Shown here: positions 1,007 through 30,886 of the stretch, in pieces
Position numbering within the stretch: position 1 is the first letter of the stretch
Layout: each line of letters opens with the position of its first letter
Source: an uncultured bacterium
Lineage (GTDB): Bacteria > Patescibacteriota > Gracilibacteria > UBA1369 > PNNO01
Length of the DNA stretch: 32,000 nucleotides
Direction: 5' to 3'
Assembly (NCBI GenBank): GCA_963704705.1
Contig: OY969931.1
Coordinates: forward strand, 570,001-602,000
Position numbers and translations under genes: made by a program
Notes under the pieces: generated by a model
The model's database searches: none
Seen by the model: only the letters and a program-made list of their open reading frames with translations
Told to the model about the DNA's origin: nothing

Positions 1007-2149
1007 ATGCTGAATAAATTGAAAAGGCTTCTATTTTTGAGCCTTATCATAATAACACCGTTCTTATTCAATCCATTTAACGGCGATATTGAGCTAATAA
1101 AGGTAATATTTTTATGTTCAATGATATTTGTTTTGCTTCTTTATGCAATATTTTTCATACAAAAGAGACTGAAATTTAATAAAAAAGGGAAAATAATTGT
1201 ATTTTCAATTCTGGGATTTATTTTATTTGCTTTAATATCAACATTTTCAAATGATTTTCTTACTTCAATTTATGGTCAATACGGACGTTATTTTGGGTTC
1301 TTGCCATGGTTTAGTTGTATTATGCTGGCATTTGTTGCACCTTTTTATATAGAAGGCAAGAATTTTCTTGAAAAGCTTATAAAAGTGCTAATCTGGGTTG
1401 GTTTTGTTAGTGCTTTAAGTGCAATATTGCTTTCTTTTTTGGATATAGGAGCTGTTTTCGAAGGAAGATTGTCAGGATTTACCGGGAATCCAAATGTATT
1501 GGGTAAATTGTTGCTGATTACGATTATTTTGAATTTTATATATCTCGCCCATTTAAAAAAAGACACTAAATGGCTATATATAATAACTTTGATAATTCAA
1601 TTGGGCGTATTTATAATGACTGGAAATAGGGGAGCATGGCTTGCACTAGGTATTATTTTATTGATTCTATTACTTCGAAATCCTAAAAAATATATTAGAT
1701 ATGCCACAATCGGGTTAATTAGCGCAGTTCCATTTGTTTTAGTAATTTTTACCCGAATAATTGATACGATATCTATTTCCACAAGACTCGAAATCTACGA
1801 AAAAGCCATATCAAAGCTTTTTGAAGGGGGGTTGTTCGGATATGGATTTGATTTTGACCCTAATATGTTGATTCCAAATGAAACGTATACTTATAGTGTT
1901 GATAGGGCCCATCAGTTATTTTTGGATGTTGGTTTGAATGTTGGAATTCCCGGATTAATATTTTTTATAATTTTTAGTGTTTACGCGATTTATATTTTAT
2001 TAAAGGGAAAAAACCAATACTATAATGCATTTGGATTTGCCCTGTTAGCTTTATTTATATCCCTTCAATTCAGTTATTTTACTTCAATATCACTTCTGCT
2101 GTATTTTTTATGTATCGGTATTGCCCTTAAAACTGGTGTGAGTGATTAG
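1007..2149 (+). CDS. O-antigen ligase / Wzy-type polymerase family polytopic membrane protein
   Basis: 380 aa with many TM helices. The motif MTGNRGAWLALGIILLILL followed by a loop region is typical of the Wzy_C / O-antigen ligase family, recognised from memory. Confidence 0.7.
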   Translation: MLNKLKRLLFLSLIIITPFLFNPFNGDIELIKVIFLCSMIFVLLLYAIFFIQKRLKFNKKGKIIVFSILGFILFALISTFSNDFLTSIYGQYGRYFGFLPWFSCIMLAFVAPFYIEGKNFLEKLIKVLIWVGFVSALSAILLSFLDIGAVFEGRLSGFTGNPNVLGKLLLITIILNFIYLAHLKKDTKWLYIITLIIQLGVFIMTGNRGAWLALGIILLILLLRNPKKYIRYATIGLISAVPFVLVIFTRIIDTISISTRLEIYEKAISKLFEGGLFGYGFDFDPNMLIPNETYTYSVDRAHQLFLDVGLNVGIPGLIFFIIFSVYAIYILLKGKNQYYNAFGFALLALFISLQFSYFTSISLLLYFLCIGIALKTGVSD

Positions 2150-2195
2150 CCTTTATTCAACCAATTATGACATTTTTAAAAAAGCCCTAATATTT

Positions 2196-3797
2196 TTATT
2201 CGAATCGAAAACTATTACCCATATCTTCATCAAAAGTATTTGTCCCATCAAAGAATGTTACATCTTGTCCAACATCCCAATGTACTGCTTTTTCTTTTGA
2301 GGGGGAATAATAGGTATATGCCACCCAATTTATAAAACAGCCTACCCCGGCATCACCATAATTTAATACAGGAATGAAGACCCCGTCCTCTTCAGCAGGT
2401 TGAAGGCTTACCACAGTGCATTCTGGAAGATAAACGTCTTTGATAAACTGGTCAAGTTCAGAATTGTTTTGAATTTGGCTAAATACAATTTTCCATGCAG
2501 GACTTCGATTTTCATCTAACTGTAACAAAGAAAGCGAATTTGTAACTTCTTCGCATTGAGTATTATACGTTTCTTCAGTTGAGATATAGACGGCATTATT
2601 CGCGCTATCTGTGAATACTTTGACAGGTGAAGTAGTGGTGTTATTCTGATCCGCAAAACATCCTGCTGAATTTGTAACAACTTTTGGGATTTTAATTGAA
2701 AAACCAAAGTCGTTGTTTGTATATAAGTTCCAAGTAGAATCGACTGATGTCATTGTTTCATTAGAAACATTAGGAACTCTAAAAGTCAATAACATCCTAT
2801 TAATTAAAAACATAGCTTCGGTTGAAGGTTCTCCTGCTCCAAGTGTATAACCTTCGGCAAGTTCATAACATTGGCCAGCAAGTGGGCCTTCGCATTGCAT
2901 CATTGGTAAATTTATTGCCAATATTTCATCATTTGGTCCTTTCATTTGAATTGTTGGATAGTCTGAAACAGCGCCTCCCGGAGTTTCATAATACATATCG
3001 CTGGTTACTTCCCATCCGTCAGTCATCATGAATGAAACACCTGAAGTAGGACTAACATAAAAATTAAGTGGTTCTGGAGTATCGCCTTCTTCATATACAG
3101 TTAACGAATTATCTTTAATTGTTTTCATTCTATAAAGCATTTCTGCAACTTCTTTTCGGGTCATAGATCCTGCTGGATCATAATATCTATCTACTCCTGC
3201 AGAACTGTCAGGATTTGCATTTTCAACAACATGACCTGTTCCAACTAAGTTACGAAGCCATACATATGTAAAGTAATCTCCGTACCACTGATTATAATCA
3301 ATATCAAGCACACTATTTAATTTTATTGTTGCACCTGCATACATACCATCATTTGGAAGTGTTCCGTTATTAAATTCAAGTGAGGCCATTTTAATTGCTT
3401 CAACCCTATTAACACATTGACTAGGTTTAAATGTTCCGTCCGGATAACCTACTACTGTCCCATCCTGAAGCGCTTTATTTACATAAGGCCAATACCACTC
3501 AGAAGTTGAAGTGTCACTGAAATAATTGTCATAATAATTAGAACCAGCAGCGGAATCAGTTGTTATGATGTCTTTTTTTGAAGTAAGATACATCATTTTA
3601 AGAAATTCAGCCCTGTTTACACACTGATCAGGCTTAAAAGTCCCATCAGGATATCCCTGAATCACACCATTATCCGACATCCATGTTATTGCCGTTTCAT
3701 AATCTGTTGTTTGGTCAACATCAGAAAATGCTGCATTTGCTACCTGGCTCATTAATAATGTTAATATTAAGCCAGGAATCAGAATGAGTTTTTTCAT
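2196..3797 (-). CDS. secreted SLH-domain cell-surface protein (S-layer-associated)
   Basis: Signal peptide MKKLILIPGLILTLLMSQVANA. Two tandem SLH-type repeats (FSDVDQTTDYETAITWMSDNGVIQGYPDGTFKPDQCVNRAEFLKMM and FSDTSTSEWYWPYVNKALQDGTVVGYPDGTFKPSQCVNRVEAIKM). The C-terminal roughly 350 aa are unassigned. Confidence 0.85.
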   Translation of the reverse strand: MKKLILIPGLILTLLMSQVANAAFSDVDQTTDYETAITWMSDNGVIQGYPDGTFKPDQCVNRAEFLKMMYLTSKKDIITTDSAAGSNYYDNYFSDTSTSEWYWPYVNKALQDGTVVGYPDGTFKPSQCVNRVEAIKMASLEFNNGTLPNDGMYAGATIKLNSVLDIDYNQWYGDYFTYVWLRNLVGTGHVVENANPDSSAGVDRYYDPAGSMTRKEVAEMLYRMKTIKDNSLTVYEEGDTPEPLNFYVSPTSGVSFMMTDGWEVTSDMYYETPGGAVSDYPTIQMKGPNDEILAINLPMMQCEGPLAGQCYELAEGYTLGAGEPSTEAMFLINRMLLTFRVPNVSNETMTSVDSTWNLYTNNDFGFSIKIPKVVTNSAGCFADQNNTTTSPVKVFTDSANNAVYISTEETYNTQCEEVTNSLSLLQLDENRSPAWKIVFSQIQNNSELDQFIKDVYLPECTVVSLQPAEEDGVFIPVLNYGDAGVGCFINWVAYTYYSPSKEKAVHWDVGQDVTFFDGTNTFDEDMGNSFRFE

Positions 3798-4092
3798 ATT
3801 TTAAGGTTAGTTATTAAAACCAAGGTATACAATAACACATTTTGTAATAAAAGTTGCGGTTTAATTGTAAAAAGTTCGAACAACGAACCATCAGTATATT
3901 TCAAAAATTTTTGCTCGAACCGATTTAAGCCCTTCAAATAAACCAAAACAGCGCCCAAAATTTCTGGGGTGCGTTACTTAACGCGTTCCGAACTCAGCAT
4001 TTTGAAGCTGTAATGAGTTTTAATAAACAGATATCACAGCTGAAAGAGGTATTAGCTCAACATTGTTTTTAATTTATCGTTAATTTTACATT

Positions 4093-4338
4093 ATGAAAAC
4101 ACCAAAAAGTAAAGTATTCAGAACTATCGAAGAATTAGATATGTATTTGCAAAATAATGAAAGGGCGAATGGATATTTGTCTTTAGAAGTTACATCGCAA
4201 GTATTAGGTGGAAGAATGCTTTGTAGCTTATTAAATTCCAAAAGAATACATCCAGTTGAAGTAGTAAACGAATATGGTAGAAAAGAAGCTGTTTTCAGGA
4301 ATAGCGAAGTAAAAAATATTGCTTTAAAAATGTTTTAA
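4093..4338 (+). CDS. small DNA-binding protein, excisionase/MerR-like HTH (tentative)
   Basis: 81 aa. The segment YLSLEVTSQVLGGRMLCSLLNSKRIHPVEV...GRKEAVFRNSEVKNI resembles the HTH_17/excisionase layout. First gene inside the putative element. Similarity judged by eye only. Confidence 0.4.
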   Translation: MKTPKSKVFRTIEELDMYLQNNERANGYLSLEVTSQVLGGRMLCSLLNSKRIHPVEVVNEYGRKEAVFRNSEVKNIALKMF

Positions 4339-4461
4339 TTTTTCGTCGAGCGCTTGCGCGAGACAAGTTTGCAGGAAGCTGATTTTAGTTTGAAGTTGGG
4401 GCTTTTGTTGGGATTAAGTAATTATATTGTAGATTAAGTTCTTTTCACATATACTTAATTT

Positions 4462-4599
4462 GCGCAACATAGGCTATAGACACGAAGTTTTCGCCGTTCA
4501 TCCATCCACAATTGTGGTAGAGATGGGCGGCCAGAACTTCACAATTGGGAACTTCGTGTTCTCGGTCTGTGTTGCGCACTGGCCGTCCTTTTTTATTTT
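4462..4599. repeat. 116-nt imperfect extended hairpin followed by a T-tract (candidate single-strand origin or structured RNA)
   Basis: 4462-4489 pairs with 4550-4577: 28 positions, 3 central mismatches, a few G-T pairs. Inner stem 4494-4502 pairs with 4522-4530. Apical palindrome CCACAATTGTGG at 4506-4517. An alternative stem forms between 4525-4534 and 4579-4588, followed by TTTTTTATTTT at 4589-4599. Confidence 0.5.
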
Positions 4600-4614
4600 G
4601 TAACCAATGTAATT

Positions 4615-5361
4615 ATGAAAAGACTGCTTACAATGTTAATTTTGCTTGTATTAGTACTATTTACTGGCTGCGGCAACGAGATATCTGAAACAGCCGATAA
4701 TACTAGTGAATTACCAAAAGCTCAAAAAGAAACAAAAAAAGACGATTTTACTTTCACTAATAAAATTCCGGCAGAGGGATTAACTGAAAAACTGGATACT
4801 TTGGATACCAAAGAAATACACACTGGTACCAGCTTTGCGATTATGGTGTACCCTTTTGACATTGTTTCTGCTTTTATGTCTAATCTACCAGATTATTATA
4901 ATAAACGTTATTCAGACGCGAAGATCGCACAAAAATATAAAAGTCTGAAACAAGAGCCATATATTCGTAATAAAATTTCTTTTGTAGTAGGATTGGCGCA
5001 TATAGGAGGTTATAACGATTCGAGCAGTATTTCTATTGATAATAACTTTTATGAGTATTTTTTCTTAGAAAATGAAAATGGCGAATACGTTCAGGCATAT
5101 TCTCAGGAATTTGTAGAGTTTAACAGCATGATGCCTGAAATAGACTGGCTAAACCCGAATTTAGTGGTATATGTTTCATTTCCAGAAGACGAAGTAGAAC
5201 AACTAATGCAAGAAGCATCTAAGCTCTATATAACTTTCGACGGTTTGGATATTTTGCCAGAAAACCGCATTGAATTGAGGTATCCTTTTATTAATTACTA
5301 TTTAGAGGCTTTTCCAGAGTTGGAAAGCATGGTTGAAGAAATGGAAGCCTATAAGCCTTAA
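4615..5361 (+). CDS. lipoprotein, unknown function (248 aa)
   Basis: Signal peptide with lipobox MKRLLTMLILLVLVLFTGC. No recognisable domain. Confidence 0.7.
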   Translation: MKRLLTMLILLVLVLFTGCGNEISETADNTSELPKAQKETKKDDFTFTNKIPAEGLTEKLDTLDTKEIHTGTSFAIMVYPFDIVSAFMSNLPDYYNKRYSDAKIAQKYKSLKQEPYIRNKISFVVGLAHIGGYNDSSSISIDNNFYEYFFLENENGEYVQAYSQEFVEFNSMMPEIDWLNPNLVVYVSFPEDEVEQLMQEASKLYITFDGLDILPENRIELRYPFINYYLEAFPELESMVEEMEAYKP

Positions 5362-5364
5362 TTG

Positions 5365-6252
5365 TTAACTTGGAAAAAAAGATTGAATCCAGCTCCAGAT
5401 ACTCGTTAGATTCGTCCATGCTAGTGAGTAATCTATTGCTAACAGTGATATTATAACTATTATTCCAGCTATAATTTTATGTTTCCATGCAGATTTAAGT
5501 ATTTTGAAAATTAGTAATATAAGCTGCCAGAGCCACCAAAATGGATTGATCCAATTCCATGTGTTTTGAGGAATACGGAATGGTTGGGTCTTTTTTATTT
5601 CAAGTTGCCTAGTGAATTTATCTATTAGTTTTATAAAACGTTTGATTGAATCACACGTGTCAATGACACTTTGTCCTACTCCTAAATAATAAATGTGAGC
5701 TGGGGTACAACTCCCTTGCATTAATGCTTCTTGGTCACGGCTAACTAATGTGGTAGGAATCATGTTTTCTATAAAATGATCTCTTCCTTTTCCGAATTTA
5801 AATTCTTCTATATTTGAGCGTAATTCTTTTTCAGCACCCATGCCATCTAAATTTAATGATGAAAGCATGATACTTATTTCATGCAATGATTCTTCAGCTT
5901 TTTCTCTAATTGCAGCTTCTTCTTTTTCTAAGTTATCTATGGAAAAATTAGTTGAAATATTACTTTCGATTTTGCTTTTAACTTCTTCAGCATCCTTTTC
6001 CTCCCAACCATCTGGAATTCCATTGATTCCTCCCCATTGACCACTGAATTTTTCTTCATGTTTTGGGATGTCGAAATTTTTGAAATAGAGTAGTCCATGA
6101 TATCCAACGAATGATTGGCTCCAAGATTTACCAACTTTATTACAGGATTCAATGAGTTCATTGCTCTTCTCTTTTAGTACTGTACATGATTGAGAACAAT
6201 CTTTTTTCAGTTCTTCTGCGACTTTTTTGATTTGTTCTAATTTTTTTTTCAT
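5365..6252 (-). CDS. hypothetical protein with soluble N-terminal domain and two C-terminal Trp-rich TM helices (third gene of the OLD operon)
   Basis: ATG start and TAA stop, 36 nt downstream of the preceding gene. C-terminal helices INPFWWLWQLILLIFKILKSAW and IIAGIIVIISLLAIDYSLAW. Confidence 0.65.
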   Translation of the reverse strand: MKKKLEQIKKVAEELKKDCSQSCTVLKEKSNELIESCNKVGKSWSQSFVGYHGLLYFKNFDIPKHEEKFSGQWGGINGIPDGWEEKDAEEVKSKIESNISTNFSIDNLEKEEAAIREKAEESLHEISIMLSSLNLDGMGAEKELRSNIEEFKFGKGRDHFIENMIPTTLVSRDQEALMQGSCTPAHIYYLGVGQSVIDTCDSIKRFIKLIDKFTRQLEIKKTQPFRIPQNTWNWINPFWWLWQLILLIFKILKSAWKHKIIAGIIVIISLLAIDYSLAWTNLTSIWSWIQSFFPS

Positions 6253-6288
6253 ATGTTTAGTTGTAGATGTGTATACTAACTACCGCAA

Positions 6289-7389
6289 TTATGCATAGAC
6301 CGACTCCCTTTTAAAACTGTAAGCTCTGCCCGTAATATATCGTAATATCAGAAATGGAAAAACAATATGATTATTTTCTAAAAATCGTCTTACCATTATA
6401 AACAACTCTGGATCAGACATTTCAAGCTCCAGCCAGCCACTAGGTGTATATCTTGCAATTGAACCAAGAAGAAAAACTAAATAAAACCTAATTTCAACAT
6501 CTCTTTGTTTTGGCACATTTGTTGCACCAAAGCCAAGTGCATATTGTGTGCCATAAATATCCTCAGTAGTGCTAATTATTTCATCACAAAGTGGTTTGTC
6601 TTCTGCAGAAAAGTCTGTAAATTTATTATTGCAGGCGGCAACAGTATAAAAATTATTTTTTTCAGGAAAAATTTCATCCATACGCTTATAAATGTCTTCA
6701 AATCCTGGGATTGTAGATACATCTTTTATTGGATTACAATAATGATAATGTCCTGATTTTGTATGTGCTCCAGTGGATGAAAAGCCTGTTATACATCTAA
6801 ATACATGTGGTGCTTTTTTGAGTATGCTGTAGCATTCTTTTCTTAATTCTGGCAGAAAGCGCAAGTATTCTTTTAATGGAGGTAGCTCATCTGGAAGAGC
6901 TGTTGAGTAAAAAAGGCTATGCAAATCTTGAGATATCCCCCCTTTTCCATTTTTGCAATAAAAGTTTCTTAATTCCTCTGATTCTTGTTTCTTATAACCA
7001 TGATAATTTGTTGGAGTTATACCAAAAAATAACAGCATCGCTTTTATTAGTAGTTCACACACATACATGTGCGTAATAATCGTATTTTGTGGTGAAGTAT
7101 CAATACAGGTATAGTCGTAATTTCGTGCAGTTTTTATAATATTGATTATTTCTTGAGTGACTGATGCATTTCTGTTTTCTTTTTTAGAATAGTATTCTAT
7201 ATGGTCATATATCCAGCTTCTTAAATCTGGGACTGGATGTAACAGAACATTCCAGTTAGAATGACCTCCCGTGCCTTCAGGGCAATAACTGGGTTGTATT
7301 ACATATGGTGGTCTGTCTTCAGTTTTAAATTGTTGCAACTTATTTAAATTATTTATCAAGAACTTTAAAAGTCTCGTCAAGCAACTCAA
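6289..7389 (-). CDS. Cys/His-rich hypothetical protein (about 349-366 aa), partner of the OLD nuclease
   Basis: Long ORF with no ATG in its first 107 codons. In-frame TTG candidates at 7389, 7380, 7359 and 7338, so the start either overlaps the OLD stop (7349) or lies 10 nt after it. The C-terminal LLGSIARYTPSGWLEL...RRFLENNH loosely recalls YaaC-like or HEPN-type (R-x5-H) tails. That is a weak, unverified impression. Confidence 0.6.
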   Translation of the reverse strand: MSCLTRLLKFLINNLNKLQQFKTEDRPPYVIQPSYCPEGTGGHSNWNVLLHPVPDLRSWIYDHIEYYSKKENRNASVTQEIINIIKTARNYDYTCIDTSPQNTIITHMYVCELLIKAMLLFFGITPTNYHGYKKQESEELRNFYCKNGKGGISQDLHSLFYSTALPDELPPLKEYLRFLPELRKECYSILKKAPHVFRCITGFSSTGAHTKSGHYHYCNPIKDVSTIPGFEDIYKRMDEIFPEKNNFYTVAACNNKFTDFSAEDKPLCDEIISTTEDIYGTQYALGFGATNVPKQRDVEIRFYLVFLLGSIARYTPSGWLELEMSDPELFIMVRRFLENNHIVFPFLILRYITGRAYSFKRESVYA

Positions 7390-9178
7390 ACAGCTTATTA
7401 ATGTTATCCATTGATTCTTGAGACAATTTGATGTTATCAGTTTCTACCGATTGTAAGAATAACCTCGCAAGCAGAACTTTATCCATCTTCTTTTGTTTCA
7501 CATATTCACTGTTTGAACCCGAATACTCTTTTTCTTCTTTTATAACAAATTTTTTAAAGTCTTCTGCAGAGAAAATATCCTCTATTGTTCCTTCTTTTTC
7601 TAATACAGACAGTATTAATTTTTTAGAAACCAGCCAAGTTTTTGTAAGGTTTTTCACTCCATCCTTTTTACCTTGGTCTTTATCATATAAATATACAACT
7701 TTACAGCCCCATCCATGAAGAACTGTGCCTACAAATGGCATATTCCCAGCACCACCGCCAAATATGAAATTTATGTCATTGTTGTTAACTAATTTTTTAA
7801 ATGCCTGTAAGTAAAAAATGTCAGATTGCCCTTCAACAACAACATTATTAAGCTTATCCAAATTAGTAATTCCAGAACTTAATTCTAGCCCTATAGCAGT
7901 CAGTATAGGTGTTAAAGTTTCTTTATCAGCTAAGGCATGTATTTTATTTATTATTTCTGTGCCTTTCTTTTTATGCCTTGTTATTAGCCTTATGCGATTA
8001 AGTTTGTCAGCTTCAAGAAGATATGGCGAATGTGTGGAAAATATAAGTTGTGCTTCTTTTGATGAATCTTCAAGCTTTTCCAATATATCTTTCTGTGCTT
8101 TAGCATGTAAAAATAAACCAGGTTCATCGATCAGGATAATATTTGGAAGCGATTCCTTTGCACGTGCCGTTATTTTTATATAAAACGCTAAATGCCATTG
8201 CCGACCTTTACTTCTTAAGCTTGGTTCATAAGGATAATTGTCTTCTTCAATCCAAAAAAGTAGGGAATCTGAATCCCAGTCAACACTAAGATTGGATACA
8301 TCTTGAGTCCAGAATTTTTTATAATCGTCATTTAAATTGATATTTATATCAGTTTTATGTTTATGCTTAGTCCTGTCCTCGCTGCTTTTAATAGTTTCGA
8401 TGTTCAGATCACTAATTACTGAAAGGTCTTGAACCCATTCATTATCCTCAAGTTCAGCAAACGGTACCTTATTTGGGAAAATGTCATCAAATGAATTAAA
8501 AAATATAAAATACGGAATGTATTTTTCTTTTAGAACTTCAATAAACTTGTCTTCAATATCTTTGAGATTGTTAAGTTTTTCAGCTTTATTTATCAAATTT
8601 TGTAAATAAGTCGAAAACTGAGTTCTTTCCTTCTCAACTTCAATTTGTTCAAGATTTGGATTGGTTGTATCCCTAAATGTTTCTAATTCGCTTTTAAAAG
8701 TATCAATTTTATCTGAAGCAGTAGGTAAATCACCGCCGAGCTGAGCATATTTTTGATGTATCTTGTGCAAATAATCAAGTAACTTCTTCATTTCTTTTTC
8801 AATTTCATCTTTATTAGTTAAATCCAGTCTTTTTCGTGATTCTTCAGCAATTTTATATTTGTCAGGATACTCCTTAATAATTTCGATTTCCATCGAATCT
8901 AAGCTCTTATTTAATTCTATTTTGTTCAAAATATCAGTAAGAGTAGATTTGCTGATTTCAAATGTTACTGAAATTGAAGGTTTATTATTAGTGTTTTTTA
9001 TTGGGATTGCCTCTTTTCGTATTGTTTTATCAGCATCAAAATCTTCCAAGGCTTCAAGTACTGATGTTTTTCCAGATTCATTTTTTCCAGCAAGAATTGT
9101 TATGTTATCTGTCAGGTAGCAGTCGCCACTATCTATAATGGATCTGAAGTTTTTAATTCTAAATTTAATTAACTTCAT
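7349..9178 (-). CDS. OLD-family (overcoming lysogenization defect) ATP-dependent nuclease: ABC-type ATPase + Toprim
   Basis: Walker A GKNESGKT (aa 31-38), Walker B IILIDEPGLFLH and STHSPYLL. The C-terminal Toprim has VVVEGQSDIFYL and VVYLYDKDQG acidic motifs. At 609 aa it is close to P2 Old and GajA in size. Confidence 0.85.
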   Translation of the reverse strand: MKLIKFRIKNFRSIIDSGDCYLTDNITILAGKNESGKTSVLEALEDFDADKTIRKEAIPIKNTNNKPSISVTFEISKSTLTDILNKIELNKSLDSMEIEIIKEYPDKYKIAEESRKRLDLTNKDEIEKEMKKLLDYLHKIHQKYAQLGGDLPTASDKIDTFKSELETFRDTTNPNLEQIEVEKERTQFSTYLQNLINKAEKLNNLKDIEDKFIEVLKEKYIPYFIFFNSFDDIFPNKVPFAELEDNEWVQDLSVISDLNIETIKSSEDRTKHKHKTDININLNDDYKKFWTQDVSNLSVDWDSDSLLFWIEEDNYPYEPSLRSKGRQWHLAFYIKITARAKESLPNIILIDEPGLFLHAKAQKDILEKLEDSSKEAQLIFSTHSPYLLEADKLNRIRLITRHKKKGTEIINKIHALADKETLTPILTAIGLELSSGITNLDKLNNVVVEGQSDIFYLQAFKKLVNNNDINFIFGGGAGNMPFVGTVLHGWGCKVVYLYDKDQGKKDGVKNLTKTWLVSKKLILSVLEKEGTIEDIFSAEDFKKFVIKEEKEYSGSNSEYVKQKKMDKVLLARLFLQSVETDNIKLSQESMDNINKLFELLDETFKVLDK

Positions 9179-9212
9179 TACGTTTTTTGTTATTTACAAT
9201 TTTAGCTTGTGT

Positions 9213-9241
9213 ATTATGCCTTTTTTTGTCTTTTTATTCAA
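9213..9241 (-). promoter_or_regulatory. sigma70-like promoter for the OLD operon (TTGAAT-17-CATAAT on the minus strand)
   Basis: The minus strand reads TTGAAT (9241-9236), a 17-nt spacer, then CATAAT (9218-9213), about 35 nt upstream of the OLD ATG. Confidence 0.4.
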
Positions 9242-9245
9242 TAAA

Positions 9246-9274
9246 TTGTATATTTGTAACGTTAAAAATGTAAT
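9246..9274 (+). promoter_or_regulatory. sigma70-like promoter TTGTAT-17-TGTAAT, implying a near-leaderless mRNA for the 251-aa gene
   Basis: The hexamers are readable with 17-nt spacing. The -10 ends 9 nt before the ATG at 9284. Confidence 0.35.
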
Positions 9275-9283
9275 GAATCCTGT

Positions 9284-10039
9284 ATGCGACTGAAAATTTC
9301 ACCCATTGAAGCCTTAAAAAAAATAGATAAGTTAGTTAAGAGCGGAGCCCAAATCCTTAATTATATTCGTGGTGATGCTTGGGATTTTCATAAAAATCAT
9401 ATACTGACACAGGGTGTATATTTAGATGAGGAAGACCATAATTTAAAGCCTAAGCCCTTAAATACAGAAGAAACAGAGCTATATGCTAGTAAGTATGACA
9501 AATGGGTTAAAAGCTGCAAAGAAGAGCTAGAATTAATATTTTTAGACTATACTCCTATTTATAAGTTTATTAATGCTTTTGATGATTCGGAAATTCAGGT
9601 TGGTCAGCAAGATAGACCGTATTTACTTTGGGAACGAAATATAGAAGCTAAATTAGAGGTTTTAAGCTCATTTTTCGACGGTTTAAACAGTTTTGTGCGT
9701 TCACCACTTTCTTACCTCTCAGACAGGGCACAGATTTGTTTTTATGACTTAATTTGCCAGTTAACTCCAGATACAAACGAATCAATGTTATGCAATTACA
9801 TGTTTAAAGAGTTATCAGTTGGTGAGAGTGTTGATTTTGTTAAAATTTATGCGGAAATCAAAGGTGAAGATGTTGAATTGCAACCTGAATGGCCTAATAC
9901 CTGGAAGAAGACAGTTGATACCGCTTATAATGAAATTAACCGTAAAACTAACAAATCTTTTGGATTTTCAATATTCGAGAAGAAAAAAAACATGCTTTTT
10001 ATTAAATTACCTTCCAGATTAATTTCCAGCTTTAAGTAA
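9284..10039 (+). CDS. hypothetical protein (251 aa), element-borne
   Basis: ATG start, TAA stop and coding-like composition. No domain recognised. Confidence 0.6.
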   Translation: MRLKISPIEALKKIDKLVKSGAQILNYIRGDAWDFHKNHILTQGVYLDEEDHNLKPKPLNTEETELYASKYDKWVKSCKEELELIFLDYTPIYKFINAFDDSEIQVGQQDRPYLLWERNIEAKLEVLSSFFDGLNSFVRSPLSYLSDRAQICFYDLICQLTPDTNESMLCNYMFKELSVGESVDFVKIYAEIKGEDVELQPEWPNTWKKTVDTAYNEINRKTNKSFGFSIFEKKKNMLFIKLPSRLISSFK

Positions 10040-10083
10040 ATTCATTTTAAATTAGACCAAAAACCTTCCCAGTCAGCGCAGGT

Positions 10084-10224
10084 GCTTGTTCGCTTATATT
10101 TTAGGCGCACTTGAAAAAACTTTATTTATGAATGCGAACAAGCCATACGAAAATTTGATTGGGAAAAATATCTCTGACACCGAAAAGGAAGAGATAGCTT
10201 GTTCGCTTACAGATTTTTTTCAAG
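10084..10224. repeat. iteron-like repeat set upstream of the SpoVG-like and Rep genes
   Basis: GCTTGTTCGCTTA occurs at 10084-10096 and 10197-10209. Its 10-nt core is inverted (GCGAACAAGC) at 10134-10143. CTTGAAAAAA at 10110-10119 is inverted as TTTTTTCAAG at 10215-10224. Confidence 0.6.
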
Positions 10225-10271
10225 TCTTGATCGAAATTGACCAGGATAACAAGAAGAATAATGAAGCATAA
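10128..10271 (+). CDS. possible small acidic protein (47 aa from ATG 10128; the track ORF starts at TTG 10086)
   Basis: Short ORF that overlaps the repeat set and so may be spurious. Its stop overlaps the start of the SpoVG-like gene. Confidence 0.25.
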   Translation: MNANKPYENLIGKNISDTEKEEIACSLTDFFQVLIEIDQDNKKNNEA

Positions 10272-10572
10272 GATAACCGAAGTTCAGATTCAAATTGTAA
10301 AGCCAAAAGATGGTCTTATTGGTTTTGCCAGCATTGTGCTGGATGAAGAATTGTACATAGGTTCTATTGGCATTCATAAGAAATTGAATACTGACGGATT
10401 TAGGCTCACTTATCCAACAAAAGCGTTATCAAACGGTCAGCAAATTCATATTGTTCATCCAGTAAATAAGCGGCTTTCAAAACTTATTGAAAAAGCTGTT
10501 TTTACTAAATTAAAAGAAGTAATGCGAAGTGTTTATGATAGACACAGTAGTTTTAACAATACCGATTATTAA
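10261..10572 (+). CDS. SpoVG-like nucleic-acid-binding protein
   Basis: From the internal ATG: MKHKITEVQIQIVKPKDGLIGFASIVLDEELYIGSIGIHKK...FRLTYPTK...IHIVHPVNKRLSKLIEKAV. This follows the SpoVG pattern (V.D.R.. + KA.ASIT.D..F.V..I.V.... + HPI), recalled from the B. subtilis SpoVG sequence. Confidence 0.65.
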   Translation: MKHKITEVQIQIVKPKDGLIGFASIVLDEELYIGSIGIHKKLNTDGFRLTYPTKALSNGQQIHIVHPVNKRLSKLIEKAVFTKLKEVMRSVYDRHSSFNNTDY

Positions 10573-11689
10573 AGGAATGATTACGCAAGGTGAATTGTTT
10601 TATCCACATTTAGAGGTCTTTAAAGATCATAACGTCATAAAGCAGAAAAGTTATATGAAATCTGTACAAAATCCTAGTAAAAGAGATGTAAAAGAAGGTA
10701 ATTATAAGCCACGGTTGACCGTATTTTGTAGACCTGTGTATCCGCGTGGCAGAGAATTTAATTTAAGAATTGAATTTTCAGCTCCTAAATTACTATTTGG
10801 TAATAATTTTGATGAACTTGAAGAGGCTGATTTTCAGGAAGTCTTACGAAAATTACAGACTAAATTACATGAGATGGGCGTGAGTATTTCGTTAAGACGA
10901 CTTTCTTCAGCGCCGGTAAGCGCTATTCATTATTCTAAAAATATTGTTTTAGATGATTATACTTCTGTATCTATGATTACTAACCAGCTCAAGAAAGTGG
11001 ATGTGAAGACTATAATAGATACAGAACAGAGGGAATATAGGAATGAAGGGCATTTGTTAAGGTTTCATGCAAACTCTTATGAATTAGTCTTTTACGATAA
11101 AATAAAAGATTTACAGCAGGCAAAAATAAGCGATAAAAGAGCAGTTGAAAAAGATAGTATTTATCAAATGTGTTTATTTGATGAGCTTAAGTCTATTAAA
11201 CCTTTCGAAGTTTTAAGAATGGAAGCGAGGTTAAATAAACGGCAGAAAATAAGGTCTGTTTTTAAAAATATTGGTTTATCTTACCATATGGATATTACTT
11301 TTAAAGAAGTCTTTAAAAAGAAAATTGCACAGGACGTTTTACTATATTTTTGGGAACAAATGGATAAAGGTATAAAGTTTTTTTCTGTAGATATGAGTAG
11401 CATTGCGGATATTTTTTCAGAAATTAAACGTTTACGTCCTTCATTTTCAACAAACAAGATTCTTCAACTTATAGGAGCTTTACTATACATACAAGAAAGT
11501 GGCGTAAGGCAATTTAGGGCGGATTTAGGGCTAGTAGGTACTAAAGCTTCTGTTTGGTATCGCTTACAAAATGATTTAAAAGTCACAAATAGCATGAGAA
11601 CAGATTCTCACTATAAAAGACTTCTTAAAATACCTGAAGCATTGAAATTGTTTCTTCCTTTAAAATTGGCTTCATATTCAGTAAAATAA
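10535..11689 (+). CDS. rolling-circle replication initiator, filamentous-phage gpII / CRI family
   Basis: MIDTVVLTIP matches M13 gpII MIDMLVLRLP. LRIEFSAPKLLFGNNF matches VEIKASPAKVLQGHNVF. ELVFYDK matches LVAYLKH. VLRMEARLNKR matches LVRFEARIKTR. The track ORF begins at GTG 10529, but ATG 10535 fits the family N-terminus. Confidence 0.8.
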   Translation: MIDTVVLTIPIIKGMITQGELFYPHLEVFKDHNVIKQKSYMKSVQNPSKRDVKEGNYKPRLTVFCRPVYPRGREFNLRIEFSAPKLLFGNNFDELEEADFQEVLRKLQTKLHEMGVSISLRRLSSAPVSAIHYSKNIVLDDYTSVSMITNQLKKVDVKTIIDTEQREYRNEGHLLRFHANSYELVFYDKIKDLQQAKISDKRAVEKDSIYQMCLFDELKSIKPFEVLRMEARLNKRQKIRSVFKNIGLSYHMDITFKEVFKKKIAQDVLLYFWEQMDKGIKFFSVDMSSIADIFSEIKRLRPSFSTNKILQLIGALLYIQESGVRQFRADLGLVGTKASVWYRLQNDLKVTNSMRTDSHYKRLLKIPEALKLFLPLKLASYSVK

Positions 11690-11708
11690 CAATATAACCC
11701 ATTTAATT

Positions 11709-13187
11709 ATGAAAGCTATTACATTAGCCAGGGTCTCAGATAAGGAACAAGAAGACAGAGATTCCTTACCTGCACAAGCTGATAACTTTATTAAGTATTG
11801 TGATAGGCACGAATTAGTCATCATTAAACAATTTGAGCTTGTAGAGTCATCAACCCGTGGGAACAGAACAAAATTTAATGAAGTTATAGAATTCATTAAA
11901 AAACAACCAGAAACAGTGGCGCTCGTGGTCGATAGGGTCGACAGGCTCCAAAGAGGATTCAAAGAGACTGTAATATTTGATGAATTGATGCAAAAAGGTA
12001 AAGTCGTACTCCATTTTATCAGGGAAAATTTAATAATTAGTGAAAATTCCAAAGGTCCTGATATTATAAGATGGGATTATGCTGTAATGGCAGCTAAAAC
12101 ATACATTCTTCAATTGCGTGATAATGTTAACTCTACAAAACAATTCAAATTATCGAGAGGGGAGTGTGTAACTCAAGCTCCAACGGGGTATTTAAATGTT
12201 ACTGACCCTGCTACAGAAAGAAACACTGTTGTTATAGATAAAGATCGTGCGCCATTTGTTAAAAAGACATTTGAACTTTATTCAACAGGATTGTATTCAT
12301 ATGAAAGCCTTGCTGTAAAACTTGCTGAAGAAGGTTTTACTAATAAGAGAGGTAATTCAATATCAAAAAACTCTATTGGTTTGATTCTTCAAAATAAGTT
12401 TTATTATGGAATTATCGTACATAAGGCAGGTAATAATACCGAATATCCCCATAATTACCCCAAAATTATTACTAAAGGACTTTATGATGATTGTATGGAA
12501 GTTGCAAAAGCACGACAAAAAACACCGACTAAATACATATTAAAACCTTATGCTTTTAGAGGCTTAATAAGATGTGCTCATTGTGGTTGTACGATTTCAT
12601 TTGAAACACATAAAGGTAAATATGTTTATAGTCGTTGTAACAAATCAAAAGGGAATTGCCCTGCAGGATATGTACGTGAAGAAATTTTGTTGTCACAAGT
12701 ATCAGAACTGCTAAAAAAGTTAGCAATTCCTAATGATGTGCTAGTAGATTTAAAGCTTAGATTGCAGAAGTCTAGTGAAGCTGAAATTCAATATCATAAA
12801 CACTCTATCGCAACTTTAAGACGTGAATATGATCAAATTCAACAGAAGTTGCATAACTTACTTGATTTATGTATTGCTGGGAGTATTACTAAGAGTCAAT
12901 ATGACGAAAAAGCTAGTGAACTGAAACAAATACAATACAACATTGATATGAAATTAAAAGAACACACAAAGGCAGATGAAGAGTTTGGAATTACGGTTTC
13001 TTATCTTATGGAACTCGCATCTAAAGCATATAAGTTGTTTGAAAGTTCGAAAGTAGAACAAAAACATAGAATTTTAAAATTATTACTTTCGAAAATTACT
13101 TTAGAGGGTGAAAAGCTTTATTTTAAAGTAAAAAGTCCCTTCGAGGCTATAATAAATGCTAAAGAACGTTGTTTTTGGGGTGAGTGA
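11709..13187 (+). CDS. large serine recombinase (integrase)
   Basis: The N-terminal resolvase domain has the catalytic-Ser motif ITLARVSDKEQ (S10) and VVDRVDRLQR. There is a recombinase domain, a zinc ribbon CAHCGC...SRCNKSKGNCP and a C-terminal coiled coil. The last 12 nt overlap tRNA-His on the opposite strand. Confidence 0.9.
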   Translation: MKAITLARVSDKEQEDRDSLPAQADNFIKYCDRHELVIIKQFELVESSTRGNRTKFNEVIEFIKKQPETVALVVDRVDRLQRGFKETVIFDELMQKGKVVLHFIRENLIISENSKGPDIIRWDYAVMAAKTYILQLRDNVNSTKQFKLSRGECVTQAPTGYLNVTDPATERNTVVIDKDRAPFVKKTFELYSTGLYSYESLAVKLAEEGFTNKRGNSISKNSIGLILQNKFYYGIIVHKAGNNTEYPHNYPKIITKGLYDDCMEVAKARQKTPTKYILKPYAFRGLIRCAHCGCTISFETHKGKYVYSRCNKSKGNCPAGYVREEILLSQVSELLKKLAIPNDVLVDLKLRLQKSSEAEIQYHKHSIATLRREYDQIQQKLHNLLDLCIAGSITKSQYDEKASELKQIQYNIDMKLKEHTKADEEFGITVSYLMELASKAYKLFESSKVEQKHRILKLLLSKITLEGEKLYFKVKSPFEAIINAKERCFWGE

Positions 13188-13253
13188 TGGGGCTCGAACC
13201 CACGACCCTCGGGACCACAACCCGATGCTCTAACCAACTGAGCTACACTCACC
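13176..13253 (-). tRNA. tRNA-His (anticodon GTG) with encoded G-1 and CCA
   Basis: The minus strand folds as a cloverleaf. G-1, then acceptor GTGAGTG/CACTCAC. D arm GCTC-AGTTGGTTA-GAGC. Anticodon arm TCGGG-TTGTGGT-CCCGA. Variable loop GGGTC. T arm GTGGG-TTCGAGC-CCCAT. Discriminator C, then CCA. Confidence 0.9.
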
Positions 13254-13320: not shown

Positions 13321-13374
13321 TTCCCCCCGGGGGGAAGGGTAGTCCAAAGTGGGACCGGTCCCATGCCCGGGCAT
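13321..13374. repeat. three GC-rich perfect palindromes within 54 nt
   Basis: TTCCCCCCGGGGGGAA (13321-13336), GGGACCGGTCCC (13351-13362) and ATGCCCGGGCAT (13363-13374). The last two are directly abutting. Confidence 0.9.
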
Positions 13375-13421
13375 AGTATACCTATTACATATCAATATTT
13401 ACTGTTCGTCAAGTGCGCGAT

Positions 13422-13570
13422 GCGTACTGACTCATCCGATTCGCGTTTCGCAAGCTCGCGCTCGTATCAGCTAGTTTAAACACGCATAGCGTACTGACTC
13501 AACCTGTTCAATCAGTCGCTTACGCTTCTTCTTACTTCGTCGTACTTAACCATCCGATTCGTGCTTCGCA
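13422..13570. repeat. duplicated 31-nt module, second copy split by a roughly 50-nt insert
   Basis: Copy 1 (13422-13452) is contiguous: GCGTACTGACTCATCCGATTCGCGTTTCGCA. Copy 2 has GCGTACTGACTCA at 13489-13501 and CATCCGATTCGTGCTTCGCA at 13551-13570, with both halves meeting the insert at a CA dinucleotide. Confidence 0.8.
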
Positions 13571-13608
13571 CTCATACGCATGTTTAAGCATCACAGCTTG
13601 ATTCAGCA

Positions 13609-29440: not shown

Positions 29441-29712
29441 TTATGTACTTTGACAATTAGTTGCGGATAATAACTAATAAAACAAATCTAAAAATATTTT
29501 CAAAACAACCAAGAATAACCCGGTTTTTCCGGTATATATAAACCAACCTGCCCTAAGATACTGTGAGCCTGCAAAAGAGGAAATGAAAGCGCAGTCAAAA
29601 GAAGTCAAATGGGCACAACCTTCAACCCTCAACGTCAGAAATCACAACGACAGAAGCTACAGGCTTCTTGCCACACAGCAGCCGGACTTTAAGGCCGGCA
29701 GGAGGAATCGAG

Positions 29713-30861
29713 ATGGACAGACTCAATCGTTTGGTGCTCTGTATGGGCGCCGCCTTCATGGTCTTCGTGATGGCCATTCCCATGGCCAACGCGCAGGCCG
29801 ATCCCGACAACGATCCGGTCGCGGTGTGTGACATCGCGGCGGGACCCGGTGGGCTCAGGGTATTCCCCTGGGCGCCCGGCGATAAGGAGCTGGCAGTGCG
29901 CCTCGAGTACGCGGAATTGCGTACGCTCTTTATCTACAAGGAGTGTGGGGGGAAGGACGACATCCCCGTGGTCAAGATCGAGGGGACCAATTACATCACG
30001 ACCAAAACCAGATGGGAGGACGAGAACGACCCCAAGGTCGTCTACAGCGGTCATCGGATCTTTATGCTCGCGCAGCGAAAGCGCGACATCAACAATGGCC
30101 GCGGGTTCCCGATGACGATCACGACGAGTCAGAAGACCTTCCACCTGCGGATCTTCGTCATCCCGAGCGTTTCCATGGCCGGTCAGGCCGATCGCAATGC
30201 TCGGGTCATCAACGAATGGAACAAGAGCCAGGCTTTGCTGGCCAAGCGTGTGGTCGCAAACGAGAAGCGAAGCATCAATGCCCGAAGGGCTGATGTGGAG
30301 CTCTCGCTTTACGGCTTCTTCGCCGGCGAGACTCCGGGACATCCGGGTGGTGGTATGGGCATCTCGTCCAACATCATCCTTGGCAAGTTCGCGAAGGACG
30401 TGGTGCAGCTCGGCTTGAGCCCGCACATCTCTTTCATGCGCTACCAGCTCCAGATCGAGGGGCTTCCCCCTGACGGAGCGCTGAACCGCGACATGAACTC
30501 GACTGAATGGGACTTTGGTCTCAGTTTTCTCCTTCGTATCCAGCCCTTCAAGTACTTGTACTTCGATGGGAAACTGGGCTTCTCCCTGCGTGTCGTTGAC
30601 AACAGCGACGCCATGACCTGGCAGGAGGACTACCCCACCTACCAGATCTACGGGATCAACGGCAGCACCGCCAAGATGGCGGTGCTCAACTGGAGCATCG
30701 GTATCTACTTCCCGGTAGCACGGAACTTCGCTTTCGGAGTGTCCTACATGGGCACCGTATCCCTGACGAAGCAGGCCTGTGTGCTCAGTGCAACCACTGA
30801 CCACAACATGTGCAATTCCTTCAACCACAGCGGCGCGGTCGAAATCCGCGCACGCTTCTAG
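29713..30861 (+). CDS. secreted protein, probable outer-membrane beta-barrel (GC-rich segment)
   Basis: SD GGAGG lies 7 nt before ATG 29713. Signal peptide MDRLNRLVLCMGAAFMVFVMAIPMANAQA. The C-terminal ...GAVEIRARF ends in an aromatic residue as in OMP beta-signals. The track start at 29668 is probably too far upstream. Confidence 0.6.
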   Translation: MDRLNRLVLCMGAAFMVFVMAIPMANAQADPDNDPVAVCDIAAGPGGLRVFPWAPGDKELAVRLEYAELRTLFIYKECGGKDDIPVVKIEGTNYITTKTRWEDENDPKVVYSGHRIFMLAQRKRDINNGRGFPMTITTSQKTFHLRIFVIPSVSMAGQADRNARVINEWNKSQALLAKRVVANEKRSINARRADVELSLYGFFAGETPGHPGGGMGISSNIILGKFAKDVVQLGLSPHISFMRYQLQIEGLPPDGALNRDMNSTEWDFGLSFLLRIQPFKYLYFDGKLGFSLRVVDNSDAMTWQEDYPTYQIYGINGSTAKMAVLNWSIGIYFPVARNFAFGVSYMGTVSLTKQACVLSATTDHNMCNSFNHSGAVEIRARF

Positions 30862-30886
30862 AACACGAACGAGAGGAGAAGAGACC

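Follow-up and report, generated by a model that had tools for sequence, protein, structure and literature searches.

Phage-type serine integrases such as those of Listeria A118/LI, phiC31, Bxb1 and TP901-1 have the same domain order as the recombinase described in this work, with an N-terminal catalytic domain (NTD) bearing Ser10, a recombinase domain (RD), and a Cys4 zinc ribbon plus coiled coil. Like the element analysed here, they use a short common core and a distal motif located 5 bp farther from the centre in attP, and this shift of the ZD motif between attP and attB has been documented for A118/LI and other integrases (PMC3783163). Our element differs from these systems in that its target is the CCA end of a tRNA gene and not a protein-coding gene, in that its attP lies in the last codons of the integrase, so that the enzyme has one C-terminus when integrated and another when free, and in that it appears to be a small plasmid-like replicon and not a tailed phage. 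In the myxophage Mx8 (IntP/IntX) and in the SSV1-type systems the integrase gene also spans attP and is altered or split upon integration, and Mx8 targets a tRNA gene as well; these integrases, however, are tyrosine recombinases, unlike the enzyme of the window. The pSAM2-type AICEs of actinomycetes are small (about 10 kb) and integrate into tRNA genes, as outlined in a review (PMC2440964). They share these two features with the window element, but AICEs have tyrosine integrases, long tRNA-derived repeats and an FtsK-like transfer gene, whereas the window element, which lacks a transfer gene, has a serine recombinase and a core of 7 bp. After excision, AICE circles are replicated by a rolling-circle Rep. 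The gpII/G2P initiators of filamentous phages (PF05144 Phage_CRI, e.g. M13 gene II) appear to have three motifs and the fold in common with the Rep of the window; in contrast to those phages, the element has neither the gene X/gene V arrangement nor virion genes, and the protein that accompanies its Rep is SpoVG-like.

Our results show that in the window, the 32,000-nt stretch of DNA that was analysed, a 9,211-bp block (3972-13182) is an insertion, which a congener (genome G001) lacks at the same junction. Its features are as follows.

3965-3971, + strand: attL common core TGGGGTG, left insertion boundary; one core copy marks this junction in the empty G001 site
3972-4072, + strand: P' (element-side) attachment arm, with CGAAC at 3989-3993, positions 25-29 from the T of TGG
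4093-4338, + strand: 81-aa ORF adjoining attL, without family match; by its position, a candidate accessory or directionality factor
4461-4578, no strand assigned: extended imperfect hairpin in the sole sizeable non-coding gap, candidate single-strand origin
4615-5361, + strand: predicted lipoprotein (248 aa), cargo; signal peptide ending in LFTGC, no family match
5365-6252, - strand: 295-aa protein with a hydrophobic C-terminus, cargo; no family, third gene of the OLD operon
6289-7389, - strand: YaaC-like protein (PF14175, E = 1.1e-11), cargo; overlaps the OLD gene
7349-9178, - strand: OLD-family ATPase-TOPRIM nuclease (PADLOC Old, 3.6e-26; AAA_15, AAA_21, OLD-like TOPRIM), defence-type cargo
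9284-10039, + strand: 251-aa backbone gene with no assigned function, conserved in position upstream of the replication genes
10084-10225, no strand assigned: repeat cluster (GCTTGTTCGC three times, plus ACTTGAAAAAA / TTTTTTCAAGT), candidate operator or double-strand origin
10086-10271, + strand: small conserved ORF (~50-61 aa) that immediately precedes and overlaps the SpoVG-like gene
10237-10572, + strand: SpoVG-like nucleic-acid-binding protein (PF04026, E = 3.2e-10); overlaps the Rep start
10529-11689, + strand: Rep, distantly related to filamentous-phage gpII/G2P by homologues, fold and motifs
11709-13187, + strand: large serine recombinase (492 aa) with Resolvase, Recombinase and Zn_ribbon_recom domains, Ser10 in RVS and a coiled coil
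13176-13182, + strand: attR common core TGGGGTG, right insertion boundary
13176-13252, - strand: tRNA-His(GTG), the target gene, intact after insertion, with the T-loop CGAAC at 20-24 from the CCA end

The exact boundaries are established by the empty site. At locus L011 of G001 the orthologues of the O-antigen-ligase and SLH genes are 71% and 65% identical at the amino acid level, and after the SLH gene the sequence continues as aaaccaaaacagcgcttaaatctac-TGGGGTG-agtgatggg, that is, directly into tRNA-His, with the insert absent. When the window flanks are joined at one copy of the core, they align colinearly to this locus (281 of 337 columns identical) and the junction is free of gaps. The original prediction had placed the element ends at the TGGGGTG copies at 3965 and 13176 and had called for an empty site in relatives, and both points were borne out in this same-genus genome; the match of 10 out of 11 nt that it reported when the T-run is included (tttcTGGGGTG versus ttttTGGGGTG) is also present. 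The core corresponds, in complement, to the discriminator base, the last three acceptor-stem bases and the CCA of tRNA-His. The repeat is real but non-significant by itself, because the window contains exactly two copies against a chance expectation of 1.43, and two or more were found in 47 of 100 shuffles; it is the empty site, together with the family-wide evidence, that validates TGGGGTG as the boundary. Nine related tRNA-His loci were compared, and none contained a counterpart of the element ORFs.

The terminal gene codes, by its sequence, for a complete, bona fide large serine recombinase, as had been proposed. Its resolvase-type catalytic domain (PF00239) covers residues 4-109, with R8-V9-S10 invariant across three aligned homologues and six free forms, and is followed by PF07508 (residues 179-264) and PF13408 (residues 283-335), where the four zinc-ribbon cysteines (C289, C292, C310 and C317) are invariant among the aligned homologues. 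In the AF2 model of the recombinase of a circular relative (L059), the predicted NTD, alpha-E, RD and ZD can be recognized, and long paired helices (340-443), corresponding to the coiled coil, are inserted into a beta-rich ZD. The stop codon (13185-13187) falls within the 3' end of tRNA-His, the terminal codons (GE and the stop) are read from the tRNA sequence, and the last conserved codon, that of Trp490 (TGG, 13176-13178), is the tRNA CCA. There is one tRNA-His gene in the whole genome, and CCA is genomically encoded in all 35 tRNA/tmRNA genes of this host. This register with tRNA genes holds throughout the recombinase family, as judged from sequence comparison: among 102 related loci, 65 have a recombinase ORF that enters an antisense tRNA at its 3' end, and the in-frame TGG of the conserved last Trp is the tRNA CCA in 55 of these 65. 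Ten tRNA identities are targeted (Asn, Gln, His, Arg, Gly, Asp, Leu, Val, Glu and Met), and the common core, of 7 bp in the window, measures 6-10 bp in the relatives. The association of a serine recombinase with a tRNA gene had been considered unusual, which is correct with respect to the literature but not within this recombinase family, where it is the rule. We found no published description of this family of CCA-end-targeting elements of CPR bacteria.

Free circular relatives of the element exist. Eight related loci show an attP form instead of a tRNA junction, and in one of these, L059, a 45-nt terminal overlap indicates an 8.09-kb circle that carries the large serine recombinase (LSR), two genes of 236 and 61 aa, SpoVG, Rep and restriction enzymes. 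From these free forms, the circular contig included, it follows that attP is located inside the recombinase gene. In the excised circle of the window element, the 101 nt of 3972-4072 would lengthen the recombinase by 33 residues (ALLNAFRTQHFEAVMSFNKQISQLKEVLAQHCF, then a stop); the integrated recombinase does not have this tail, which the free forms encode. CGAAC is found at the same register in the free-form and attL arms of relatives, and comparison of the arms shows that this tRNA T-loop motif lies 5 bp farther out in the P' arm (25-29) than in the B' arm, i.e. the tRNA (20-24). The core with CGAAC at offset 25 upstream occurs in 7 of 34 integrated loci, and any other offset between 10 and 39 in at most one. 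When 19 P' arms and 37 B' arms were compared as PWMs, the peak lay at a shift of +5 (0.405; elsewhere 0.314 at most), a value inflated by the 7 P' arms that were chosen by the CGAAC-at-25 pattern, the remaining 12 not having been so chosen. Downstream of the tRNA, the B arm on the host side showed no conserved motif. No second, inverted attP-like copy was found in the element: TGG-N21-CGAAC matched attL alone when both strands were searched, and the inverted repeats include no such copy.

Regarding replication, the Rep had been assigned to the gpII/CRI type, and this assignment stands at the superfamily level, but not as a direct family match of the window protein, for which the Pfam, NCBIfam and PHROG models gave no match at a cut-off as permissive as E<=10. 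PF05144 matches 2 of 27 Rep homologues, one of which (P0024, 42% identical) exceeds the gathering score (24.9 versus 21.7 bits). The AlphaFold model of Rep (pLDDT 85.6) gave six Foldseek matches in BFVD at probability 1.0 (TM 0.36-0.51), one of them annotated as 'Replication-associated protein G2P [Inoviridae sp.]' and the other five unnamed viral proteins; in the PDB, Foldseek gave no match. With hhalign, three motifs were aligned to M13 gpII (P = 0.024), namely EFSxPKLLFGNNF/EIKASPAKVLQGHNVFG, FY189DK/AY197LK and LRMEARL/VRFEARI, Tyr197 being the catalytic residue of M13 gpII, while the same comparison with I2-2 gpII gave nothing. The invariant residues of Rep include Y189-D-K, E82, H134 and R230-x-E-x-R, with Y189 conserved in all 27 homologues. 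Taken from sequence and model, the relationship to gpII/CRI would be a remote one, at superfamily distance only. The element is sporadic, with Rep carried by 2 of 41 related genomes and by no congener, and tblastn searches of phage and plasmid collections gave no matches; its homologues number more than 1,600 in general metagenomes, versus just one among 2.9 million IMG/VR viral contigs.

The order of the backbone genes (a ~250-aa gene, a ~55-aa ORF, SpoVG-like, Rep and recombinase) is common to the window, L019, L020 and circular L059. The 251-aa backbone protein is 41% identical to the product of the same-position gene in L019, the motif PYEKL...FF.LLIEID of the small ORF is conserved in four elements, and the SpoVG-like gene occupies the equivalent position in L019, L020 and L059. 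The origins are candidate assignments. The 4461-4578 hairpin, whose inverted repeat is I6, folds as DNA at -29.9 kcal/mol (z = -5.4), and none of 200 shuffles folded as well. The copies of GCTTGTTCGC are two direct and one inverted, and these 'iterons' may not be origin repeats, because two of the three lie within the small conserved ORF. The sole ATPase of the element is the OLD-family protein. Neither a Zot-like/pI morphogenesis ATPase nor coat genes were detected among the element ORFs or in the 8.1-kb circle of L059, in agreement with the original prediction, which had also preferred a plasmid-like replicon to a prophage. Since morphogenesis genes are missing and Rep is nearly absent from IMG/VR, a plasmid-like integrative replicon is the better fit, and this part of the prediction is supported.

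Could the element be read in other ways? The chance-level frequency of the 7-mer would be in keeping with a coincidental match whose true ends lie elsewhere, for example those of an island of the tyrosine-integrase type with a longer repeat derived from the tRNA, but this is scarcely credible: the G001 empty site stops exactly at the predicted junctions, the element has no tyrosine recombinase, and the register of the P' arm is common to the relatives. Other boundaries are refuted by that empty site and the colinear alignment of the flanks. A filamentous prophage of the inovirus type, or what decay has left of one, in which the morphogenesis ATPase and coat genes are lost or unrecognisable, would account for a gpII/G2P-like Rep and for a size in the 5-10 kb range of inoviruses, and Roux et al. 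2019 (PMC6813254) report that inoviruses occur in the Candidate Phyla Radiation and that the integration genes of inoviruses include serine recombinases. We regard it as very unlikely, given that Zot/pI-like ATPases and coat-like small genes are missing from the window element as well as from the complete circle of L059, that every sizeable ORF is assigned to the backbone or to defence/restriction cargo, that the element is so tightly packed that extra small genes would not fit, and that a single relative of Rep appears in the viral contigs against the many in metagenomes.

Rolling-circle initiators and relaxases share the same nicking-joining chemistry, and Rep_trans-type proteins have been proposed to mobilise integrative mobilisable elements of Firmicutes. 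The gpII-like protein could in the same way serve transfer, as a relaxase-like nickase mobilising an excised circle that does not replicate autonomously, a reading favoured by the superfamily-level assignment of Rep and by the lack of transfer genes in the element. It is, however, unlikely, as the same backbone is found in a relative assembled as a free circle of 8.1 kb, several other contigs are in the attP form, both of which suggest extrachromosomal maintenance, and the element has a strong hairpin of the kind typical of single-strand origins; moreover, these ultra-small bacteria are not known to have conjugation machinery that the element could exploit. Comparably improbable is an immobilised relic, inserted once by the recombinase and retained for a useful OLD-type defence cargo after excision was lost. 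It would be consistent with the fact that the exact attP junction of the window element was not found in IMG/VR, that family searches of the element ORFs recognised no recombination directionality factor, and that the integrated recombinase is without the 33-residue tail of the free forms. Against it, the backbone genes are all intact with invariant catalytic residues, both copies of the TGGGGTG core are perfect, and none of the four congeners searched has the element, an absence indicative of recent acquisition.

We return to the plasmid-like reading, and propose, with somewhat better than even confidence in the scheme as a whole, that the window holds the integrated copy of a small plasmid-like element able to exist as a circle. 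The recombinase would act on attP, in its own last codons, and on the 3' end of the only tRNA-His gene that the host has; recombination would regenerate this gene exactly because attP and attB share the 7-bp core. The target would most likely be recognised through the universal tRNA T-loop sequence, (T)TCGAAC, and the zinc-ribbon domain may tell attP from attB by the 5-bp outward shift of the motif. The window copy probably still excises, and the excised circle would be copied by rolling-circle replication, with the gpII-like Rep as initiator through a catalytic Tyr189, the co-transcribed SpoVG-like DNA/RNA-binding protein probably assisting it, and the 4461-4578 hairpin as a candidate for the single-strand origin. 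What remains of the element would be cargo (the OLD-family nuclease operon, the lipoprotein and genes without assigned function), with a putative role in defence. Our analysis confirms the precise insertion, in the last seven bases of tRNA-His, of a 9.2-kb element with defence-type genes that probably moves as a circle.

Our results show that the serine integrase of this family of CPR elements targets the CCA ends of tRNA genes, and that the 9.2-kb block beside tRNA-His belongs to this family, which is widespread in these bacteria and consists of integrative plasmid-like elements that probably replicate by rolling circle. The copy in the window is apparently intact. Its features are the following.

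Features of the element and its target, in window positions
13176-13252, minus strand: tRNA-His(GTG), called by ARAGORN and Rfam, the sole tRNA in the window
11709-13187, plus strand: recombinase of 492 aa with Resolvase, Recombinase and Zn_ribbon_recom domains, directly 3΄ of tRNA-His
10529-11689, plus strand: Rep, 386 aa
10084-10209: three copies of the repeat GCTTGTTCGC, two of them inside a conserved small ORF
4461-4578: hairpin folding far better than shuffles (z = -5.4)
Cargo: an operon of three genes, for an OLD-family ATPase-TOPRIM nuclease, a YaaC-like protein and a 295-aa protein of no recognised family
Cargo: a lipoprotein
Cargo: an 81-aa ORF

The limits of the insertion were obtained from the 3΄ side of tRNA-His in nine relatives, which was searched with the window's proteins. 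In G001, a genome of the same genus, the counterparts of the window's O-antigen-ligase-like gene (71% identity) and SLH gene (65%) run directly into tRNA-His, with the junction sequence ...aaaccaaaacagcgcttaaatctac-TGGGGTG-agtgatggg. The window flanks joined at one core copy are colinear with this locus (281 of 337 columns identical) and the junction is free of gaps, so the insertion comprises 9,211 bp, from 3972 to 13182 or, equivalently, from 3965 to 13175. The empty site that the original prediction had anticipated is therefore present, it agrees with the boundaries placed at the two copies of TGGGGTG, and the overall interpretation as an integrative plasmid-like element at tRNA-His proved essentially right and the finding real. 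TGGGGTG is the complement of the last seven bases of tRNA-His, including the CCA, and occurs in the window only at 13176 and 3965, a number of copies that is not significant alone (1.43 expected). None of the other relatives among the nine loci carries element genes at tRNA-His, and the synteny of this tRNA and the peptidase-like gene beyond it is kept throughout the family. Since tRNA-His is single-copy in the window's own genome, the insertion has to leave the gene preserved, and it does so. The same genome encodes the CCA in 35 of its 35 tRNA and tmRNA genes; the overlap between Trp codon and CCA seen in this integrase family requires that the CCA be encoded in the genome.

The recombinase matches PHROG 95 'integrase' (E = 3e-65), with a weaker likeness to XisF and CcrB, and its stop codon falls within the tRNA-His gene. 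In the elements of the closest Rep homologues the gene order is identical and the recombinase ORFs likewise reach into an antisense tRNA. In an alignment of three recombinases the last conserved residue is Trp490, and all residues beyond it are encoded by tRNA sequence. Of 41 related genomes, 11 contain relatives of the recombinase. Species genomes supplied 29 loci for a wider survey and metagenomes 80; the tally below covers 102 loci. The named hosts of the genome-derived loci are Peregrinibacteria, Gracilibacteria, Saccharibacteria, Parcubacteria and Berkelbacteria, together with a few MAGs labelled otherwise.

Recombinase loci and the tRNA genes that they target
3΄ end of a minus-strand tRNA entered by the recombinase ORF: 65 of 102 loci
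tRNA CCA is an in-frame TGG codon of the recombinase: 55 of those 65
No tRNA called at the end of the recombinase ORF: 22 of 102 loci
Locus partial or cut by contig ends: 15 of 102 loci
Target tRNA-Asn: 38 of 65
Target tRNA-Gln: 7 of 65
Target tRNA-Arg: 5 of 65
Target tRNA-His: 4 of 65
Target tRNA-Gly: 4 of 65
Target tRNA-Asp: 2 of 65
Target tRNA-Leu: 2 of 65
Target tRNA-Val, tRNA-Glu and tRNA-Met: 1 of 65 each

At eight of the loci lacking a tRNA, the sequence after the TGG of the recombinase is not that of a tRNA. One of these eight, L059, is a complete contig of 8,135 bp whose ends overlap by 45 nt, which indicates a circle of ~8.09 kb. Besides the recombinase, Rep and a SpoVG-like protein, it encodes two restriction enzymes (an Mrr-like endonuclease and a Type ISP restriction-modification enzyme), a 236-aa protein and a 61-aa ORF, and no morphogenesis or coat genes were found in it. 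From the free-form loci, this circle among them, it follows that the family exists as free circles, with attP within the last codons of the recombinase. In the free forms the recombinase ORF goes on for 20-35 codons beyond the Trp, and in the predicted free form of the window element it would be extended by ALLNAFRTQHFEAVMSFNKQISQLKEVLAQHCF. The exact attP junction predicted for this element was absent from IMG/VR. An AF2 model of the L059 recombinase, built on an alignment of six sequences only, predicts the expected serine-integrase architecture and no confident structured tail (pLDDT <50). At three other loci (L023 2406-2450, L062 2210-2255 and L086 1696-1740) the sequence after the recombinase TGG resembles the T-arm of a tRNA and has CGAAC at offset 20, yet ARAGORN calls no tRNA there; these could be truncated tRNA 3΄ halves, attP sites with a longer tRNA fragment, or remnants of tandem insertions.

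How may one integrase family use so many tRNA genes? Counting from the T of TGG, the T-loop motif CGAAC lies at positions 20-24 in every tRNA arm (B΄), and at 25-29 in element arms (P΄), both in free forms and in the attL sites of integrated copies. When each of 34 integrated recombinases was searched upstream for its own 6-nt core followed by CGAAC, seven loci had the motif at offset 25, and at most one at any other offset from 10 to 39. A comparison of position weight matrices from 19 P΄ arms (seven picked by a CGAAC filter, the other twelve without it) and 37 B΄ arms reached its maximum at a shift of +5 (0.405; ≤0.314 elsewhere). In the window the motif stands at 3989-3993, and TGG-N21-CGAAC has no second match on either strand; the element has no additional, inverted attP. 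We found no conserved motif in the host-side B arm, and inspection of the P and B arms by eye revealed no mirror symmetry of CGAAC in these left half-sites. Rutherford et al. 2013 (PMC3783163) showed for A118/LI and other serine integrases that the motif of the zinc-ribbon domain is 5 bp further from the centre in attP than it is in attB. The simplest reading of the arm sequences is that the zinc ribbon of this recombinase family recognises the T-loop box, which would explain its general use of tRNA genes, while the common core of 6-10 bp (CCA, discriminator and acceptor end) would choose which tRNA is used. In L025, a Gracilibacteria element, the tRNA-Arg 3΄ end is directly repeated over 20 nt (3416-3435 and 11465-11484), against the usual core of 6-10 nt.

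The tail of the free-form recombinase bears on the same motif. Its Arg is encoded by CGA in every arm that keeps CGAAC (19 arms listed); since DNA so rich in AT would be expected to use AGA for Arg, the constant CGA suggests a constraint on the motif at the DNA level. Synonymous variation in the adjacent Leu and Val codons points to a possible further constraint, on the tail as protein. We tentatively put forward, as a possibility that we consider rather doubtful in its full form, a generalist family of tRNA-gene integrases in which the zinc ribbon reads the universal T-loop box TTCGAAC, the core of 6-7 bp alone sets the tRNA, and the C-terminal ~33 residues are a possible switch. With such an enzyme, a few base changes in its own last codons would suffice for retargeting between tRNAs. 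Since attP is part of the recombinase gene, these ~33 residues are confined to the free circle, and they could be a built-in switch between the integration-competent and the integrated state.

Regarding replication, searches of Pfam, NCBIfam, PHROGs and PADLOC gave no match to Rep, even when the thresholds were permissive, and most of its >1,600 metagenomic homologues lack an annotation. Its invariant residues include Y189-D190-K191, E82, H134 and R230/E232/R234. PF05144 ('Replication-associated protein G2P N-terminal') was matched by 2 of 27 Rep homologues, one of which (42% identity) exceeds the gathering score. The AF2 model of Rep (pLDDT 85.6) matched six viral models at probability 1.0, one of them annotated as Inoviridae G2P; in the PDB, Foldseek returned nothing significant with this model, and a profile search of the sequences gave noise only. 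Aligned with M13 gpII by hhalign (P = 0.024), the family profile pairs EFSAPKLLFGNNF with EIKASPAKVLQGHNVFG, FYDK with AYLK and LRMEARL with VRFEARI, and places Y189 on M13 Tyr197, which we take to be the catalytic residue of gpII. The gpII of I2-2 and the ORF301 of Pf3 gave no match by hhalign. The gpII-type Rep of the original prediction can thus be retained, with moderate confidence, as a distant rolling-circle initiator of this type, on account of the homologue above the PF05144 gathering score, the viral G2P model and the M13 motifs, but not as a direct family match.

A relationship to gpII raises the possibility of a filamentous prophage, and inoviruses are reported from CPR, with serine recombinases among the inovirus integration genes (Roux et al. 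2019, PMC6813254). Notwithstanding this report, both the gene content and the database distribution of Rep argue against it: IMG/VR holds a single relative of Rep, and tblastn found none in phage and plasmid collections. Together with the L059 circle, devoid of morphogenesis and coat genes, these data favour the plasmid-like element originally proposed. Among 41 related genomes Rep is present in two, none of the window's genus.

The window, L059 and two other relatives, L019 and L020, share one backbone order: a ~250-aa gene (236-366 aa across the four), a ~55-aa ORF, a SpoVG-like gene, Rep and the recombinase. The hairpin lies in the only sizeable non-coding gap of the element, which makes it a reasonable candidate for a single-strand origin. 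The reading of 10084-10225 as clean intergenic iterons is weakened by the two repeat copies within the small ORF. The cargo differs: L059 carries Mrr (23-898) and Type ISP (2562-5729) enzymes and L020 a Type III-like ResIII and methylase (1635-5891). With the OLD operon here and restriction systems in its relatives, the family looks like a vehicle for genes of defence.

Outside the element, a GC-rich non-coding block (13321-13608) adjoins tRNA-His, and stretches of ~45-57 nt from ~13490-13590 are repeated many times across the genome and its relatives (82-94% identity), in what looks like a dispersed family of short repeats. The region 18000-19500, with the in-frame tandem repeats noted originally, is a GC-rich (45-50%) part of a 775-aa ORF. 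At 29500-32000 the G+C content rises to 57-64%, against ~33% genome-wide, with no match to Rfam families; foreign DNA and an unusual gene are both possible explanations.

A full-text literature search returned no published description of serine integrases at tRNA genes in this arrangement, in CPR or elsewhere, although a negative search of this kind does not prove that none exists. Large DNA cargo is inserted mainly with serine integrases, and most descriptions give protein-coding genes as their natural targets. Here, a large natural family at CCA ends appears to read an invariant T-loop box and a short variable core, which would amount to a simple and testable rule of target choice, and it would supply enzymes whose sites are already present in nearly every genome with an encoded CCA. 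In the ultra-small CPR bacteria, where the mobile elements characterised so far are very few, replicative, integrative circles of 5-11 kb are seemingly a common route for the exchange of OLD nucleases, restriction systems and other defence genes.
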